A program made the translations under genes and the position numbers. 45,913 bases of DNA from Escherichia coli. Its GTDB lineage: Bacteria > Pseudomonadota > Gammaproteobacteria > Enterobacterales > Enterobacteriaceae. Position 1 is the stretch's first letter. Each line of letters opens with the position of its first letter. The stretch is taken from NCBI RefSeq assembly GCF_003334785.1, contig NZ_QOWV01000023.1. One strand, 5' to 3'. A model generated the notes under the pieces. That model was given only the letters and a program-made list of their open reading frames with translations, made no database searches and was not told the DNA's origin. Shown piece after piece: positions 1 through 8,169 of the stretch.

Positions 1-632
1 GCCTGCCGGGGCAGCAGTATGATGAGGAGTCCGGCCTGTATTACAACCGCCACCGCTATTATGACCCGCTGCAGGGGAGGTATATCACTCAGGATCCGAT
101 TGGGCTGAAGGGGGGATGGAATTTTTATCAGTATCCGCTGAATCCGGTTCAGTATATAGATTCAATGGGACTGGCATCAAAATATGGACACTTAAATAAT
201 GGCGGATATGGAGCGAGACCCAACAAACCGCCTACGCCCGATCCAAGTAAATTGCCGGACATAGCGAAACAATTAAGACTGCCATATCCTATTGACCAGG
301 CCAGTAGTGCGCCTAATGTTTTCAAAACATTCTTCAGAGCATTAAGCCCTTACGACTACACACTGTATTGCAGGAAGTGGGTAAAACCAAATCTGACTTG
401 TACGCCACAGGATGATTCCCAGTATCCAGGGATGGATACAAAGACAGCAAGTGATTACCTGCCACAGACAAATTGGCCAACAACTCAATTACCACCAGGA
501 TATACTTGTGCAGAACCCTATTTATTCCCAGACATTAATAAACCCGATGGGCCAGCAACAGCAGGGATAGATGATTTGGGTGAAATTTTAGCTAAGATGA
601 AACAGAGAACATCGAGAGGAATAAGAAAATGA
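1..632 (+). CDS. ybfO: Rhs-family protein, C-terminal fragment (5' end outside window): end of the Rhs core with a DPIGL motif (nt 93-107) followed by a ~175-aa variable C-terminal tip
   Basis: Frame continuous from nt 3 ([57 protein letters not shown]...), a typical Rhs core terminus; stop overlaps the next ORF start (ATGA at 629-632). Symbol from remembered K-12 synteny (orphan rhs next to ybfC). Confidence 0.8.
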
Positions 633-1198
633 AAAGAGTTTTGTTCTTTTTGCTGATGATATTTGTTAGTTTTGGTGTTATAGCTGATTGCGAAATACAA
701 GCTAAAGATCATGATTGTTTTACTATTTTCGCTAAGGGTACTATTTTTTCCGCGTTTCCTGTCTTAAATAATAAAGCCATGTGGAGATGGTATCAGAATG
801 AGGACATCGGTGAGTATTATTGGCAAACAGAACTGGGTACATGTAAAAATAATAAATTCACACCAAGCGGGGCGAGACTCTTAATTCGCGTCGGGTCACT
901 ACGCCTTAATGAAAATCATGCCATCAAAGGAACGTTGCAGGAGTTGATAAATACAGCAGAAAAAACGGCGTTTCTCGGCGATCGGTTTAGAAGTTATATA
1001 AGAGCGGGTATCTATCAAAAAAAGAGCAGTGATCCAGTTCAGTTGTTGGCAGTCCTTGATAATTCAATCATGGTAAAATATTTTAAAGATGAGAAACCAA
1101 CTTATGCTCGAATGACAGCACATCTCCCGAACAAAAATGAGTCTTACGAATGTTTAATAAAGATACAGCATGAACTAATTCGTAGTGAAGAGAAATAA
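629..1198 (+). CDS. ybfC: Small protein with N-terminal hydrophobic signal-like segment, immediately downstream of the Rhs tip; candidate cognate immunity protein
   Basis: 189-aa ORF, start overlaps the rhs stop by 4 nt; N-terminus [21 protein letters not shown] is signal-peptide-like. Immunity role inferred from the Rhs toxin/immunity gene-pair paradigm. Confidence 0.8.
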
Positions 1199-1280
1199 AA
1201 TCTCTTCCTGAGAAAACAAATTAATCATTGTGAAAAATTATATAACTCATGGAATAGGTGTTTATTTTGCGTTCCATTTG

Positions 1281-2570
1281 CAGGGAAAGATCACGTAACG
1301 CTACTTTTTTGTACTAAATAATTCGCATTTTATGTTTAAAAATTGAGATATTCCTTATTACCTAAAGCTGTTTTTCATAGCTTATACATGATCAAATACT
1401 CCTTACATAAATAAGGTGAACAAATGGAACTTAAAAAATTGATGGAACATATTTCTATTATTCCCGATTACAGATAAGCCTGGAAAGTAGAGCATAAATT
1501 GTCAGGCATCCTACTATTGACTATTTTTGCCGTTATTTCTGGTGCAGAAAGTTGGGAAGATATAGAGGATTTCGGGGAAACACATCTCGATTTCTTGAAG
1601 CAATATGGTGATTTTGAAAATGGTATTCCTGTTCACGATACTATTGCCAGAGTTGTATCCTGTATCAGTCCTGCAAAATTTCACGAGTGCTTTATTAACT
1701 GGATGCGTGATTGCCATTCATCAAATGATAAAGACGTCATTGCAATTGATGGAAAAACGCTCCGGCACTCTTATGACAAGAGTCGCCGCAGGGGAGCGAT
1801 TCATGTCATTAGTGCGTTCTCAACAATGCACAGTCTGGTCATCGGGCAGATCAAGACGGATAAGAAATCCAATGAGATCACAGCTATCCCTGAACTTCTT
1901 AACATGCTGGATATTAAAGGAAAAATCATCACAACTGATGCGATGGGTTGCCAGAAAGATATTGCAGAGAAGATACAAAAACAGGGAGGTGATTATTTAT
2001 TCGCTGTAAAAGGAAACCAGGGGCGGCTTAATAAAGCCTTTGAGGAAAAATTTCCGCTGAAAGAATTAAATAATCCAGAGCATGACAGTTACGCAATGAG
2101 TGAAAAGAGTCACGGCAGAGAAGAAATCCGTCTTCATATTGTTTGCGATGTCCCTGATGAACTTATTGATTTCACGTTTGAATGGAAAGGACTGAAGAAA
2201 TTATGCGTGGCAGTCTCCTTTCGGTCAATAATAGCAGAACAAAAGAAAGAGCCAGAAATGACGGTCAGATATTATATCAGTTCTGCTGATTTAACCGCAG
2301 AAAAGTTCGCCACAGCAATCCGAAACCACTGGCACGTGGAGAATAAGCTGCACTGGCGTCTGGACGTGGTAATGAATGAAGACGACTGCAAAATAAGAAG
2401 AGGAAACGCCGCAGAATTATTTTCAGGGATACGGCACATCGCTATTAATATTTTAACGAATGATAAGGTATTCAAGGCAGGGTTAAGACGTAAGATGCGA
2501 AAAGCAGCCATGGATAGAAACTATCTCGCGTCAGTCCTTGCGGGGAGCGGGCTTTCGTAATCTTTCCCTG
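1281..2570 (+). mobile_element. H-repeat (ISAs1-family-like) element, copy 1, ~1290 bp with imperfect 15-bp terminal inverted repeats
   Basis: Left end CAGGGAAAGATCACG (1281-1295); right end CGTAATCTTTCCCTG (2556-2570), whose reverse complement is CAGGGAAAGATTACG. Contains one transposase-like ORF. Confidence 0.7.
1424..2560 (+). pseudogene. ybfL: H-repeat-associated transposase-like gene inactivated by an in-frame TAA at 1475-1477; otherwise full length (~378 codons)
   Basis: ATG at 1424 ([17 protein letters not shown]) runs into TAA where copy 2 has CAA; the frame then stays open to 2560 (ORF track 1499..2560). Symbol ybfQ/ybfL from memory, assignment between the two uncertain. Confidence 0.75.
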
Positions 2571-3524
2571 CTTTTTGTACTAAATAATTCGCATTTTATG
2601 TTTAAAAATTGAGATATTCCTTATTACCTGAAGCTGTTTTTTATTGCTTATACATGATCAAATACTTCTTACATAATTAAGGAGAACAAAATGGAACTTA
2701 AAAAATTGATGGAACATATTTCTATTATCCCCGATTACAGACAAGCCTGGAAAGTGGAACATAAATTATCGGATATTCTACTGTTGACTATTTGTGCCGT
2801 TATTTCTGGTGCAGAAGGCTGGGAAGATATAGAGGATTTTGGGGAAACACATCCCGATTTTTTGAAGCAATATGGTGATTTTGAAAATGGTATTCCTGTT
2901 CACGATACCATTGCCAGAGTTGTATCCTGTATCTGTCCTGCGAAATTTCATGAGAGCTTTATTAACTGGATGCTTGACTACCATTCTTCAGATGATAAAG
3001 ACGTCATCGCAATTGATGGAAAAATACACCGGCATTCTTATGACAAGAGTCGCCGTAAGGGAGCGATTCATGTCATTAGTGCGTTCTCAACAATGCACAG
3101 TCTGGTCATCGGACAGATCAAGACGGATAAGAAATCCAATGAGATCACAGCTATCCCTGAACTTCTTAACATGCTGGATATTAAAGGAAAAATCATCACA
3201 ACTGATGCGATGGGTTGCCAGAAAGATATTGCAGAGAAGATACAAAAACAGGGAGGTGATTATTTATTCGCTGTAAAAGGAAACCAGGGGCGGCTAAATA
3301 AAGCCTTCGAGGAAAAATTTCCGCTGAAAGAATTAAATAATCCCAAGCATGACAGTTACGCAATTAGTGAAAAGAGTCACGGCAGAGAAGAAACCCGTCT
3401 TCATATTGTTTGCGATGTCCCTGATGAGCTTATTGATTTCACGTTTGAATAGAAAGGGCAGCTATGGTTAGAAACTACCTGACGTCAGTCCTTGCGGGGA
3501 GCAGGCTTTCGTAAATTTGTCCTG
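2571..3524 (+). mobile_element. H-repeat element, copy 2, head-to-tail with copy 1; lacks the left inverted repeat and ~313 bp of internal 3' sequence
   Basis: Homology to copy 1 begins at 2571 (CTTTTTGTACTAAATAATTCGC, equivalent to copy 1 ~1305) and ends in a degenerate right repeat CGTAAATTTGTCCTG (3510-3524). Confidence 0.65.
2691..3452 (+). CDS. ybfD: H-repeat-associated protein, C-terminally truncated transposase-like ORF (253 aa)
   Basis: Near-identical to copy 1 through ...DFTFE, then TAG at 3450-3452 where copy 1 has TGG, followed by a ~313-bp deletion relative to copy 1. Confidence 0.8.
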
Positions 3525-3599
3525 CTACAACAGGATTAACTTCACAAATATCATTTCTCAACGTCTACACTTACTCCTGTAAACCGCTCAGGAGCAGTA

Positions 3600-4109
3600 A
3601 TGAATCTACAACGATTTGATGACAGCACCCTAATCCGTATCTTTGCCCTTCATGAGTTACATCGACTGAAAGAACATGGCTTAACGCGCGGGGCGCTTCT
3701 CGATTATCACAGCCGCTATAAACTCGTCTTTCTGGCGCATTCTCAGTCGGAGTACCGCAAACTTGGCCCGTTCGTGGCTGATATTCACCAGTGGCAAAAT
3801 CTGGATGACTATTACAACCAGTACCGCCAACGCGTAGTTGTTTTGCTTTCTCACCCCGCCAACCCGCGCGATCACACCAATGTTTTGATGCACGTTCAGG
3901 GTTATTTTCGCCCGCATATTGATTCCACAGAACGCCAGCAGCTGGCTGCGCTTATCGACAGTTATCGCCGTGGCGAGCAACCACTTCTTGCGCCGCTGAT
4001 GCGTATCAAACACTATATGGCGCTTTATCCTGACGCCTGGCTTTCAGGGCAGCGTTATTTCGAACTTTGGCCGCGTGTGATTAACTTGCGCCATTCAGGA
4101 GTTTTATGA
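3600..4109 (+). CDS. ybgA: DUF1722-family protein, upstream partner of photolyase
   Basis: 169-aa ORF; stop overlaps phr start (ATGA at 4106-4109); recognised ybgA-phr arrangement. Confidence 0.9.
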   Translation: MNLQRFDDSTLIRIFALHELHRLKEHGLTRGALLDYHSRYKLVFLAHSQSEYRKLGPFVADIHQWQNLDDYYNQYRQRVVVLLSHPANPRDHTNVLMHVQGYFRPHIDSTERQQLAALIDSYRRGEQPLLAPLMRIKHYMALYPDAWLSGQRYFELWPRVINLRHSGVL

Positions 4110-5673: not shown

Positions 5674-7338
<1,665 letters not shown>

Positions 7339-7425
7339 TTAATATGTCAAAAGATTGGCTATCGACGAACTGGCGAGGTAACGCTATGTTAACGGTGTAG
7401 CTATCAGAATACGGAAGGCGCGAAG

Positions 7426-8169
7426 ATGAAAAACACCGAACTGGAACAACTGATTAACGAAAAACTGAACAGCGCGGCGATTAGTGATTACGCGCCGAAT
7501 GGTTTGCAGGTGGAAGGCAAAGAGACGGTGCAAAAAATTGTTACCGGTGTCACCGCCAGCCAGGCTTTGCTCGATGAGGCAGTGCGTCTGGGCGCGGATG
7601 CGGTCATTGTGCATCATGGCTACTTCTGGAAAGGAGAGTCTCCGGTCATTCGCGGAATGAAGCGTAACCGTTTAAAAACGTTGCTGGCGAATGATATCAA
7701 CCTGTATGGCTGGCATTTGCCGCTTGACGCACATCCTGAGCTGGGCAATAACGCACAGCTGGCGGCGTTACTGGGGATCACGGTCATGGGCGAAATTGAG
7801 CCGTTGGTGCCGTGGGGCGAACTGACCATGCCTGTGCCGGGACTGGAGCTGGCTTCCTGGATTGAAGCGCGTCTGGGACGTAAGCCGTTATGGTGTGGCG
7901 ATACCGGACCTGAGGTGGTCCAGCGCGTCGCCTGGTGCACGGGCGGCGGGCAAAGTTTTATCGATAGCGCCGCGCGTTTTGGCGTGGATGCTTTTATTAC
8001 TGGCGAAGTTTCTGAACAGACCATTCATTCAGCCCGCGAGCAGGGATTGCATTTTTATGCTGCAGGTCACCATGCCACTGAACGTGGTGGTATTCGCGCA
8101 TTGAGCGAGTGGCTGAATGAAAATACCGATCTTGATGTGACCTTTATTGATATTCCTAATCCTGCATAA
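7426..8169 (+). CDS. ybgI: NIF3-family metal-binding protein (GTP cyclohydrolase 1 type 2 homolog)
   Basis: 247-aa ORF recognised as Nif3/YbgI family. Confidence 0.9.
   Translation: MKNTELEQLINEKLNSAAISDYAPNGLQVEGKETVQKIVTGVTASQALLDEAVRLGADAVIVHHGYFWKGESPVIRGMKRNRLKTLLANDINLYGWHLPLDAHPELGNNAQLAALLGITVMGEIEPLVPWGELTMPVPGLELASWIEARLGRKPLWCGDTGPEVVQRVAWCTGGGQSFIDSAARFGVDAFITGEVSEQTIHSAREQGLHFYAAGHHATERGGIRALSEWLNENTDLDVTFIDIPNPA

Follow-up and report, generated by a model that had tools for sequence, protein, structure and literature searches.

The ybfO/ybfC locus of Escherichia coli: an orphan Rhs toxin tip and its predicted exported immunity partner

We analysed a stretch of 45,913 nucleotides from Escherichia coli (RefSeq assembly GCF_003334785.1, contig NZ_QOWV01000023.1), hereafter called the window, which opens on the forward strand with the end of an rhs gene and continues with a complete small open reading frame (ORF). 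The truncated gene is ybfO (rhsO) and the 189-aa ORF is annotated as ybfC (WP_000832338.1). Both are named but never-characterised E. coli genes, and together they form an orphan, i.e. displaced, toxin-immunity cassette. It is a common one: in 3507 of 5426 complete E. coli genomes, a match covers 80% or more of nt 1–1300 of the window. An initial annotation had proposed an orphan Rhs toxin tip with a signal-peptide-bearing candidate immunity protein and, from the latter, an action of the tip in the cell envelope.

In the window, frame 3 has no stop codon between nt 3 and a TGA at nt 630–632; its product starts with 57 residues of Rhs core, continues as ASKYGH and ends in RTSRGIRK. The core part (nt 3–173, + strand) comprises the last 57 codons of the Rhs repeat-associated core of the ybfO/rhsO fragment, i.e. 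the C-terminal plug and aspartyl-protease region. Positions 1205–1261 of 1261 of the core model NF041261 (RHS_core) align to residues 1–57 with an E value of 7.7e-32, and positions 20–76 of 76 of TIGR03696 align to the same residues with 72.7 bits (cutoff 32.5), so that the proposed start of the window inside an Rhs core is borne out by both. Direct reading of the translation gives a first DPxGL motif, DPIGL, at nt 93–107 (+ strand) and a second motif of this type, DSMGL, in which Ser replaces Pro, at nt 159–173 (+ strand); the two are spaced by exactly 17 residues. In Photorhabdus Rhs1, the C-terminal cut falls after two aspartyl-protease motifs that are likewise 17 residues apart, the catalytic Asp residing in the second (PMC8636562). 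By analogy, the presumed catalytic Asp is encoded here by nt 159–161, and autocleavage would release the tip after the Leu encoded by nt 171–173. As the two-motif rule of Rhs1 applies and the alignments of both core models run to the model end at the Leu of DSMGL (residue 57), we place the end of the core at nt 173. DPIGL was thus located correctly in the initial annotation but does not end the core, and of the roughly 175 non-core residues counted there, 174 do follow DPIGL, but 22 of these still belong to the core, leaving a tip of 152 aa (nt 174–629). The G/C content is 0.60–0.65 in the core, 0.45 in the tip and 0.33–0.42 in ybfC; such a break between core, tip and immunity gene is the classic composition break of Rhs genes. 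Core models, double protease motif and drop in G/C content agree with the proposed identity as an Rhs tip.

The tip and ybfC meet in a translational-coupling junction (nt 614–632, + strand), which could be read directly: the toxin stop TGA (nt 630–632) and the ybfC start ATG (nt 629–631) share a 4-nt ATGA overlap (nt 629–632), as had been noted, and a Shine-Dalgarno sequence GAGAGGA (nt 614–620) lies 8 nt upstream. The same arrangement of GAGG or GGAG followed by ATGA occurs in nine of 11 loci compared, those from beta-proteobacteria included. As the sequence for the toxin's conserved RGxRK tail also serves as the initiation region of the partner gene, we consider the tip and ybfC to be translationally coupled.

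This pairing extends far beyond E. coli. In each of the 14 examined loci with an intact tip, from gamma- and beta-proteobacteria alike, the next gene encodes YbfC or a diverged homologue, and the adjacency holds down to about 35% identity for the tip and 21% for YbfC. Four diverged tip contexts, from Comamonas, a Dentiradicibacter-type oral bacterium and two metagenomic lineages, each have an ORF of 188–194 aa whose start overlaps or abuts the tip stop; these four ORFs are YbfC homologues with 32, 34, 24 and 21% identity (blastp E 3e-31 to 1e-7). The divergence of the tip is also tightly correlated with that of its partner, which, though expected of linked genes, shows a pair that moves as a unit. 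The partner also occurs without a functional toxin: intact YbfC homologues with 71–72% identity stand alone, with no Rhs tip upstream, in three loci (L006:1660-2223, L007:10001-10564 and L008:222-785), and in two further loci (L010 and L011) the tip is frameshifted beside an intact partner. Retention of the partner without the toxin is the pattern that would be expected of an immunity gene worth keeping on its own. The proposal of ybfC as a candidate immunity gene is strengthened both by the lone copies and by the partnership in every intact-tip locus, and we are nearly certain that the tip and YbfC constitute an Rhs toxin-immunity module. YbfC would bind and neutralise the tip.

Within the tip, residues 1–34 (nt 174–275, + strand) form a Pro-rich, poorly conserved linker, for which structure prediction gives a predicted local distance difference test (pLDDT) score below 55, and residues 35–152 (nt 276–629, + strand, before the stop at nt 630–632) form a conserved toxin domain of about 118 aa. 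We draw this division because diverged relatives match the tip profile at positions of about 35–152 only. Alignments of the tip family reveal the motifs SPYDY..YC..W, P.GY.C..P..FP(D/E)L and A(G/D).DD, and complete or nearly complete conservation is limited to a few residues: P59, Y62, C66, W69, C76, D94, P97, P107, G109, C112, P115, F118, A130, D134 and the R-K at the end. The family thus has several conserved carboxylates and aromatics as well as three conserved Cys (codons at nt 369–371, 399–401 and 507–509, + strand), and no conserved His in its alignment. The tip had been described as rich in Pro, Tyr and Cys; it has 13.8% Pro, 6.6% Tyr and only three Cys (2.0%), though all three are conserved. 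The K-12 tip has a pI of 9.1 and no hydrophobic stretch, the maximum hydropathy over 19 residues being 0.14. With a ratio of nonsynonymous to synonymous substitutions (dN/dS) of 0.10–0.35 the tip is under purifying selection.

The tip family is small. An exhaustive search of 1.84 billion representatives with a hidden Markov model profile of the tip returned only 27 proteins. The eleven most diverged of these were retrieved: in the seven that are long enough to reach upstream of the tip, an Rhs core (…DPIGL…DPLGL) precedes it, the remaining four being short fragments. A word-indexed search found relatives in enterobacteria only, none below 58% identity (in Escherichia, Salmonella, Citrobacter, Kluyvera, Pseudocitrobacter and Phytobacter), to which a profile search of the same protein database added just four diverged members. 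That the tip has no recognisable domain, as initially noted, was upheld by every profile and fold search: Pfam gave no family for the tip, for YbfC or for any member of the two alignments, the best matches (RPN13_C, E 0.43, and a defensin model, E 0.056) being noise; NCBIfam, PADLOC and PHROGs gave no family for either protein besides the Rhs core; profiles of Protein Data Bank (PDB) sequences gave chance matches only (E > 0.5) for both. Foldseek searches against AFDB50 returned the query itself, its relatives and uncharacterised proteins only, with no fold match for the tip. Modelled alone, the tip reaches a pLDDT of 58.5, and only residues of about 60–120 attain 70–76, as a three-stranded sheet with flanking helices. 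In an AlphaFold2 (AF2) model of the tip fused through a 30-aa linker to mature YbfC, based on an alignment with 11 true pairs, the tip core reaches 76–82.

As to what the tip does, we looked for the hallmarks of the known envelope-acting effectors and found neither a profile or fold match nor a catalytic Cys-His, His or Ser-His-Asp set that would assign it to the Tae, Tge, Tle, Tlde or colicin-M-like groups. Nothing in the tip marks it as an amidase, a muramidase, a lipase, an L,D-transpeptidase, a colicin-M-like enzyme or a pore former. In view of the conserved carboxylates and aromatics together with the lack of His and of a hydrophobic segment, our best guesses, and weak ones, are that it may attack a glycan or cell-wall substrate as a hydrolase, or may block a periplasmic protein stoichiometrically by tight binding.

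The partner has a clear export signal. YbfC starts with a predicted Sec signal peptide of 19 residues (nt 629–685, + strand) with cleavage between A19 and D20: the n-region MKR with a charge of +2 is followed by 16 uncharged hydrophobic residues (mean hydropathy 2.9) and the cleavage region V-I-A|D-C-E-I-Q. By the rule-based test used here (not SignalP), this tripartite plan of one or two K/R, a hydrophobic core of 10–17 residues and small residues at −3 and −1 is present in all 21 enteric homologues and in all four distant ones at 21–34% identity, whose cleavage regions read ...SALA|CEIE, ...NASA|MTDDKC, ...PAFA|ERPQC and ...ILYA|EVKS. The signal-peptide-like N-terminus described in the initial annotation is therefore a conserved feature of the family; older annotations likewise call YbfC a ‘putative secreted protein’ or ‘periplasmic protein’. 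We consider it very likely, judging from these signals, that YbfC is exported. The mature protein (170 aa plus stop, nt 686–1198, + strand) would be a periplasmic beta-sandwich and is the candidate immunity protein. No transmembrane (TM) or other hydrophobic segment was found in YbfC beyond the signal peptide.

YbfC has four Cys codons (C21 at nt 689–691, C30 at nt 716–718, C72 at nt 842–844 and C175 at nt 1151–1153, + strand). None of the homologues examined lacks C30 or C175, and C21 and C72 occur as a pair in the enteric proteins and in locus L012 and are both missing from L015, L016 and L018, which is the pattern of two disulfide pairs. A lipoprotein anchored at Cys21 was considered and, for the protein of the window, rejected. 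The lipobox [LVI][ASTVI][GAS]C is not found in the YbfC of the window, which reads I-A-D-C with Asp at −1, and the co-variation of C21 with C72, as of a disulfide partner, argues against its lipidation; a looser pattern, [LIM][AGS][AS]C, does precede Cys21 in eight of the 21 enteric homologues. In the fusion model, mature YbfC reaches pLDDT values of mostly about 70–92, with one block of 10 residues at 59, and is modelled as a generic, all-beta sandwich with two short helices. Between genera its dN/dS is 0.07–0.26, indicating purifying selection. Beyond the sequence relatives, uncharacterised proteins of about 185 aa with the predicted YbfC fold and 11–13% identity occur in AFDB50 among the Planctomycetes (Roseiconus and Stieleria) and in Lentisphaera.

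Since the window starts inside the gene, the orphan status of the tip cannot be read from the window itself. In K-12 J53 the gene order is kdp-ybfA-rhsC-ybfB-[RHS fragment]-ybfC-ISAs1 remnants-ybgA-phrB, the fragment being a pseudogene ‘missing N-terminus’. The first 1300 nt of the window are 100% identical to K-12, where the tip is an orphan, and also to strain 3359, where rhsC-CT/ybfB have been lost and the tip ends a full-length Rhs protein of 1399 aa. Two genomes that match the window perfectly over 25 kb were inspected, those of strains VE-F10 and NCTC9100, and both have the order rhsC-ybfB-truncated rhs-ybfC. The designation as an orphan is hence right for the lineage of the window, in which RefSeq marks the pseudogene behind rhsC-ybfB in genomes identical to it. 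Altogether, 2634 E. coli genomes share the K-12 junction of ybfB and the orphan, and in 1075 of the 5426 genomes, O157:H7 included, the tip sits on an Rhs core that continues past the K-12 truncation point, most of these being annotated as full-length ‘RHS element core protein’. A copy of the tip with 96% identity is found on a full-length Rhs at the nikR (rhsB) locus of strain MLI106K3, and full-length Rhs proteins of 1384–1399 aa with the same tip occur in E. coli, Salmonella (S. salamae), Kluyvera and Phytobacter. Judged by these gene structures, about a fifth of E. coli carry the cassette in its armed form, while in most it is unarmed. Such a split is a prediction of the model of rhs evolution by C-terminal displacement and recombination (PMC2935791), with a precedent in Salmonella (PMC7043789).

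Directly downstream of ybfC (about nt 1424–3470) lie two tandem ISAs1 (H-repeat) transposase remnants, annotated as ybfQ/ybfL/ybfD, one with an internal stop near nt 1476 and the other truncated; similar remnants flank the lone ybfC homologues in Pseudocitrobacter (L007). Scans of the locus for promoters and terminators gave nothing above shuffled expectation, and Rfam had no match in nt 1–4000. A role in anti-phage defence was dropped, there being neither a PADLOC match nor a phage context. Sequences 98–100% identical to the E. coli rhs-ybfC cassette were also encountered in metagenome-assembled genomes labelled Flavobacterium psychrophilum and Candidatus Nanosynbacter (L004, 1–1442, and L005, 1–2399); these labels almost certainly reflect binning contamination.

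For the delivery of the tip, the relatives point to a type VI secretion system (T6SS). In Phytobacter ursingii a VgrG gene (TIGR03361, 603 bits) lies directly upstream of a full-length Rhs with this tip, in Citrobacter and Pseudocitrobacter the orphan stands behind a vgrG-linked main Rhs, and the metagenomic locus L012 has VgrG, DUF2169 and PAAR-like genes in its vicinity. It is from this linkage that we derive the route for the E. coli tip, and delivery by a T6SS is likely. The full-length Rhs of E. coli (L002:5433-5800 region) starts with MSGKPAARQGD, with a literal P-A-A-R at residues 5–8; the Pfam PAAR_motif stays below threshold (E 0.24 over 19 residues), DUF6531 covers residues 46–123 and no TM segment is present in the 1399 aa.

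Taken together, we regard as probable a reading in which the ybfO tip is a T6SS-delivered, envelope-acting Rhs toxin and YbfC its soluble periplasmic immunity protein. In armed strains, the full-length Rhs would most likely be loaded on a VgrG spike and fired by the T6SS into a neighbour, the 152-aa C-terminal piece travelling inside the Rhs cage and being freed by aspartyl autocleavage behind DSMGL. The domain of about 118 aa would then act in the periplasm or envelope of the target and may become active only there, after oxidation of its conserved Cys. YbfC would be exported by Sec, cleaved after Ala19 and folded in the periplasm into a disulfide-braced beta-sandwich that neutralises incoming toxin by binding it. 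In the lineage of the window, the toxin gene lacks its N-terminal delivery part and is unarmed; the coupled ybfC could still protect against the approximately 20% of E. coli strains with the armed version, and recombination with rhsC could arm the cassette again. Its likely present function in this lineage is that YbfC protects against armed E. coli and that the module serves as a reservoir for recombination.

The separate parts of this reading are not equally firm. An action of the tip in the periplasm or envelope is probable, because immunity proteins sit where the toxin acts and the locus encodes no other protector for the cytoplasm of the producer; the analogy with the periplasmic immunity proteins of T6SS effectors suggests the same, so that the envelope site proposed in the initial annotation has gained strength. 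Activation of the tip by oxidation of its Cys is plausible, although we would put it at somewhat below an even chance; a precedent is given by target-cell DsbA, which activates periplasm-acting T6SS effectors (PMC5792426). More tentative still, and in our view rather doubtful, is the idea that the domain of about 118 aa might be a new toxin fold, inert in the reducing cytoplasm and switched on by disulfides in the periplasm of the victim, with a mechanism unlike those of the amidase, muramidase, lipase and pore-former classes, and that YbfC might be the prototype of a beta-sandwich periplasmic immunity family; the extension of such a family beyond the proteobacteria would follow from the YbfC-fold proteins of Planctomycetes and Lentisphaerae.

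Several observations weigh against the envelope-acting toxin with its periplasmic antidote. K-12-like strains are not known to have a T6SS, and no vgrG is found at the E. coli rhsC locus, that of the window included. The scaffold of the full-length protein (DUF6531, no PAAR above threshold, no TM segment) also bears tips thought to be cytoplasmic nucleases and is hence uninformative on the compartment. Where the tip acts is deduced from a single indirect line of reasoning, namely where its immunity protein is located. Divergence of the toxin is strongly correlated with that of its partner (Mantel r = 0.96, reached in 0 of 5000 permutations), but co-divergence of adjacent genes is expected from linkage alone. 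Three conserved Cys are an odd number, which makes ‘disulfide-activated’ a guess, and the tip model is poor, with a pLDDT of about 58 alone and about 76–82 for the core in the fusion, values that speak of pLDDT only and not of an interface or of Cys-Cys distances.

We weighed four other explanations. The cassette might be an evolutionary relic, the decaying leftover of C-terminal displacement, with a tip that is never made and ybfC as dispensable cargo. The pseudogene status of the rhs fragment, promoter-like sites that are no commoner than in shuffled sequence, the flanking ISAs1 remnants, the frameshifted tips of some relatives and the K-12 papers, which report no function of ybfC, all fit this idea. 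Decay is hard to reconcile, however, with a ybfC that about 3500 E. coli genomes carry intact, that shows purifying selection between genera and that is transcribed in Shiga toxin-producing E. coli (STEC), and with lone homologues that outlast the toxin, as selection for immunity would have it; with an armed copy in 1075 E. coli genomes, immunity would pay. We therefore hold the relic to be unlikely. Alternatively, YbfC could be exported and yet anchored, as a lipoprotein or by an uncleaved signal, opposite a membrane-active pore former. Tse5, a pore-forming Rhs toxin whose immunity protein is a membrane protein (PMC9637101), and the lipobox-like residues of the eight enteric homologues speak for it; the Asp before Cys21 in the window's YbfC, the plain A-x-A sites of distant homologues without Cys21, the disulfide-like co-variation of Cys21 with Cys72, a tip without any hydrophobic or amphipathic membrane segment and a YbfC without a second TM segment speak against it, and we consider such tethering very unlikely.

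The other two explanations move the action of the toxin inside the cell. Nucleases, ADP-ribosyltransferases and other enzymes of the cytoplasm make up the majority of characterised Rhs tips (PMC8636562, PMC9825190), and the same scaffold carries such tips in E. coli; as the tip also has no recognisable envelope-enzyme motif, it might cross the inner membrane like most characterised Rhs toxins, with YbfC either not being the immunity protein or intercepting the tip in transit. Yet the 4-nt overlap leaves no room for another candidate immunity ORF between tip and ybfC, tip and partner stay paired in both gamma- and beta-proteobacteria, homologues at 21–34% identity retain the signal peptide, and an antidote that is only exported would leave the cytoplasm of the producer unprotected, which makes a cytoplasmic target quite unlikely. 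An even more internal role, in which a tip made from an internal start and YbfC would work inside the producer like a type II toxin-antitoxin module, has a reported precedent in the orphan Rhs of Salmonella Typhimurium (PMC7043789), and an in-frame ATG at nt 165 would indeed yield MGL plus the tip, 155 aa in all. But this ATG has no Shine-Dalgarno sequence before it, no promoter signal exceeds chance, and YbfC has a signal peptide and the tip none, so that the two would end up in different compartments; we consider this module extremely unlikely. The T6SS-delivered toxin acting in the envelope, with YbfC as its soluble periplasmic antidote, thus remains the reading we prefer.

Among known systems, the cassette most resembles the Rhs/RhsI modules with orphan copies (E. 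coli rhsA-E, Salmonella rhs-orphan, Dickeya RhsA/B; PMC2935791), with which it shares the double-DPxGL end of the core, the A/T-rich tip, the overlapping downstream gene, the truncated copy stacked behind a main rhs, the occurrence of the same tip on a full-length Rhs elsewhere and the vgrG linkage in relatives. It differs in that the ybfO tip and YbfC fall into no described toxin/immunity family and in the predicted export of YbfC, most characterised RhsI proteins being cytoplasmic. With the periplasm-acting T6SS pairs (Tse1-Tsi1, Tse3-Tsi3, Tae/Tai, Tge/Tgi, Tle/Tli and Tlde1) it has in common a small soluble effector, an immunity protein that is found at the toxin's site of action and has a signal of the Sec or lipoprotein type, and a possible dependence on DsbA of the target, as for Ssp2 and Ssp4 (PMC5792426). 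Those effectors, in contrast, are usually stand-alone proteins or cargo of VgrG, PAAR or Hcp rather than Rhs-encaged, and they have papain-like Cys-His, lysozyme-like, alpha/beta-hydrolase or YkuD folds, whereas the ybfO tip lacks all of these as well as a conserved His. Another Rhs-encaged toxin that targets the envelope, not a cytoplasmic macromolecule, is Tse5 (RhsP1) of Pseudomonas aeruginosa (PMC9637101, PMC10684867). However, Tse5-CT is hydrophobic and forms pores, and Tsi5 is integral to the membrane, with TM regions predicted at two places, whereas here a hydrophilic tip is paired with a predicted soluble beta-sandwich; neither a membrane-inserting tip nor an integral-membrane immunity protein, as in the Tse5 pair, was found in tip and YbfC.

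The same tip has appeared in the literature in silico only, as RhsC of enterohaemorrhagic E. coli (EHEC) EDL933: in the passages of PMC7216683 that describe RhsC/RhsCI (z0847+z0851/z0853), the rhsC-specific primer corresponds exactly to nt 215–234 of the window, and from its position RhsCI (z0853) would be YbfC. These passages report a weak threading match of the tip to VipE (TM-score 0.574) and no motif for RhsCI, and a signal peptide of RhsCI is not mentioned in them. We dropped the VipE reading (TM-score 0.57), as nothing in our analysis backs it. Transcripts of ybfC and rhsC are higher in STEC associated with haemolytic uraemic syndrome (HUS), where ybfC is transcribed with rhsC (PMC6033998), and a paper from 2025 lists ybfC without functional annotation (PMC11954222).

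Further Rhs tips are seen in some neighbouring and related loci. The tip of the main RhsC itself (last ~150 aa, L001:~7300-7755) is Cys-rich, and its immunity protein YbfB (L001:7755-8081) has three TM-like segments; going by these features, the neighbouring primary RhsC toxin may also be directed at the envelope or a membrane. In a Salmonella contig (L021:4386-5009), the YbfC homologue is followed by an ORF for another orphan Rhs tip, with a C..HD.CY motif (CRTHDKCY) like that of secreted phospholipase A2 and a weak match to PF06951. In Phytobacter (L009:10682-11858), a second orphan Rhs tip of 245 aa follows the YbfC homologue and is itself followed by a 145-aa ORF with a clear lipobox (LVGC), another candidate immunity protein located in the envelope.

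The general picture of Rhs biology is unchanged by these results. What they add is a new small toxin/immunity family inside a well-known system, in E. coli genes that have names but have not been studied. The still-unannotated ybfC and ybfO gain a testable role, that of an exported immunity protein and an unarmed Rhs tip, for which the boundaries of the toxin domain and its conserved residues are now defined. Few of the characterised Rhs-encaged toxins have an immunity protein that is soluble and periplasmic, and a small, His-free, Cys-bearing domain without a fold match could indicate that an envelope target or a mode of killing is new.

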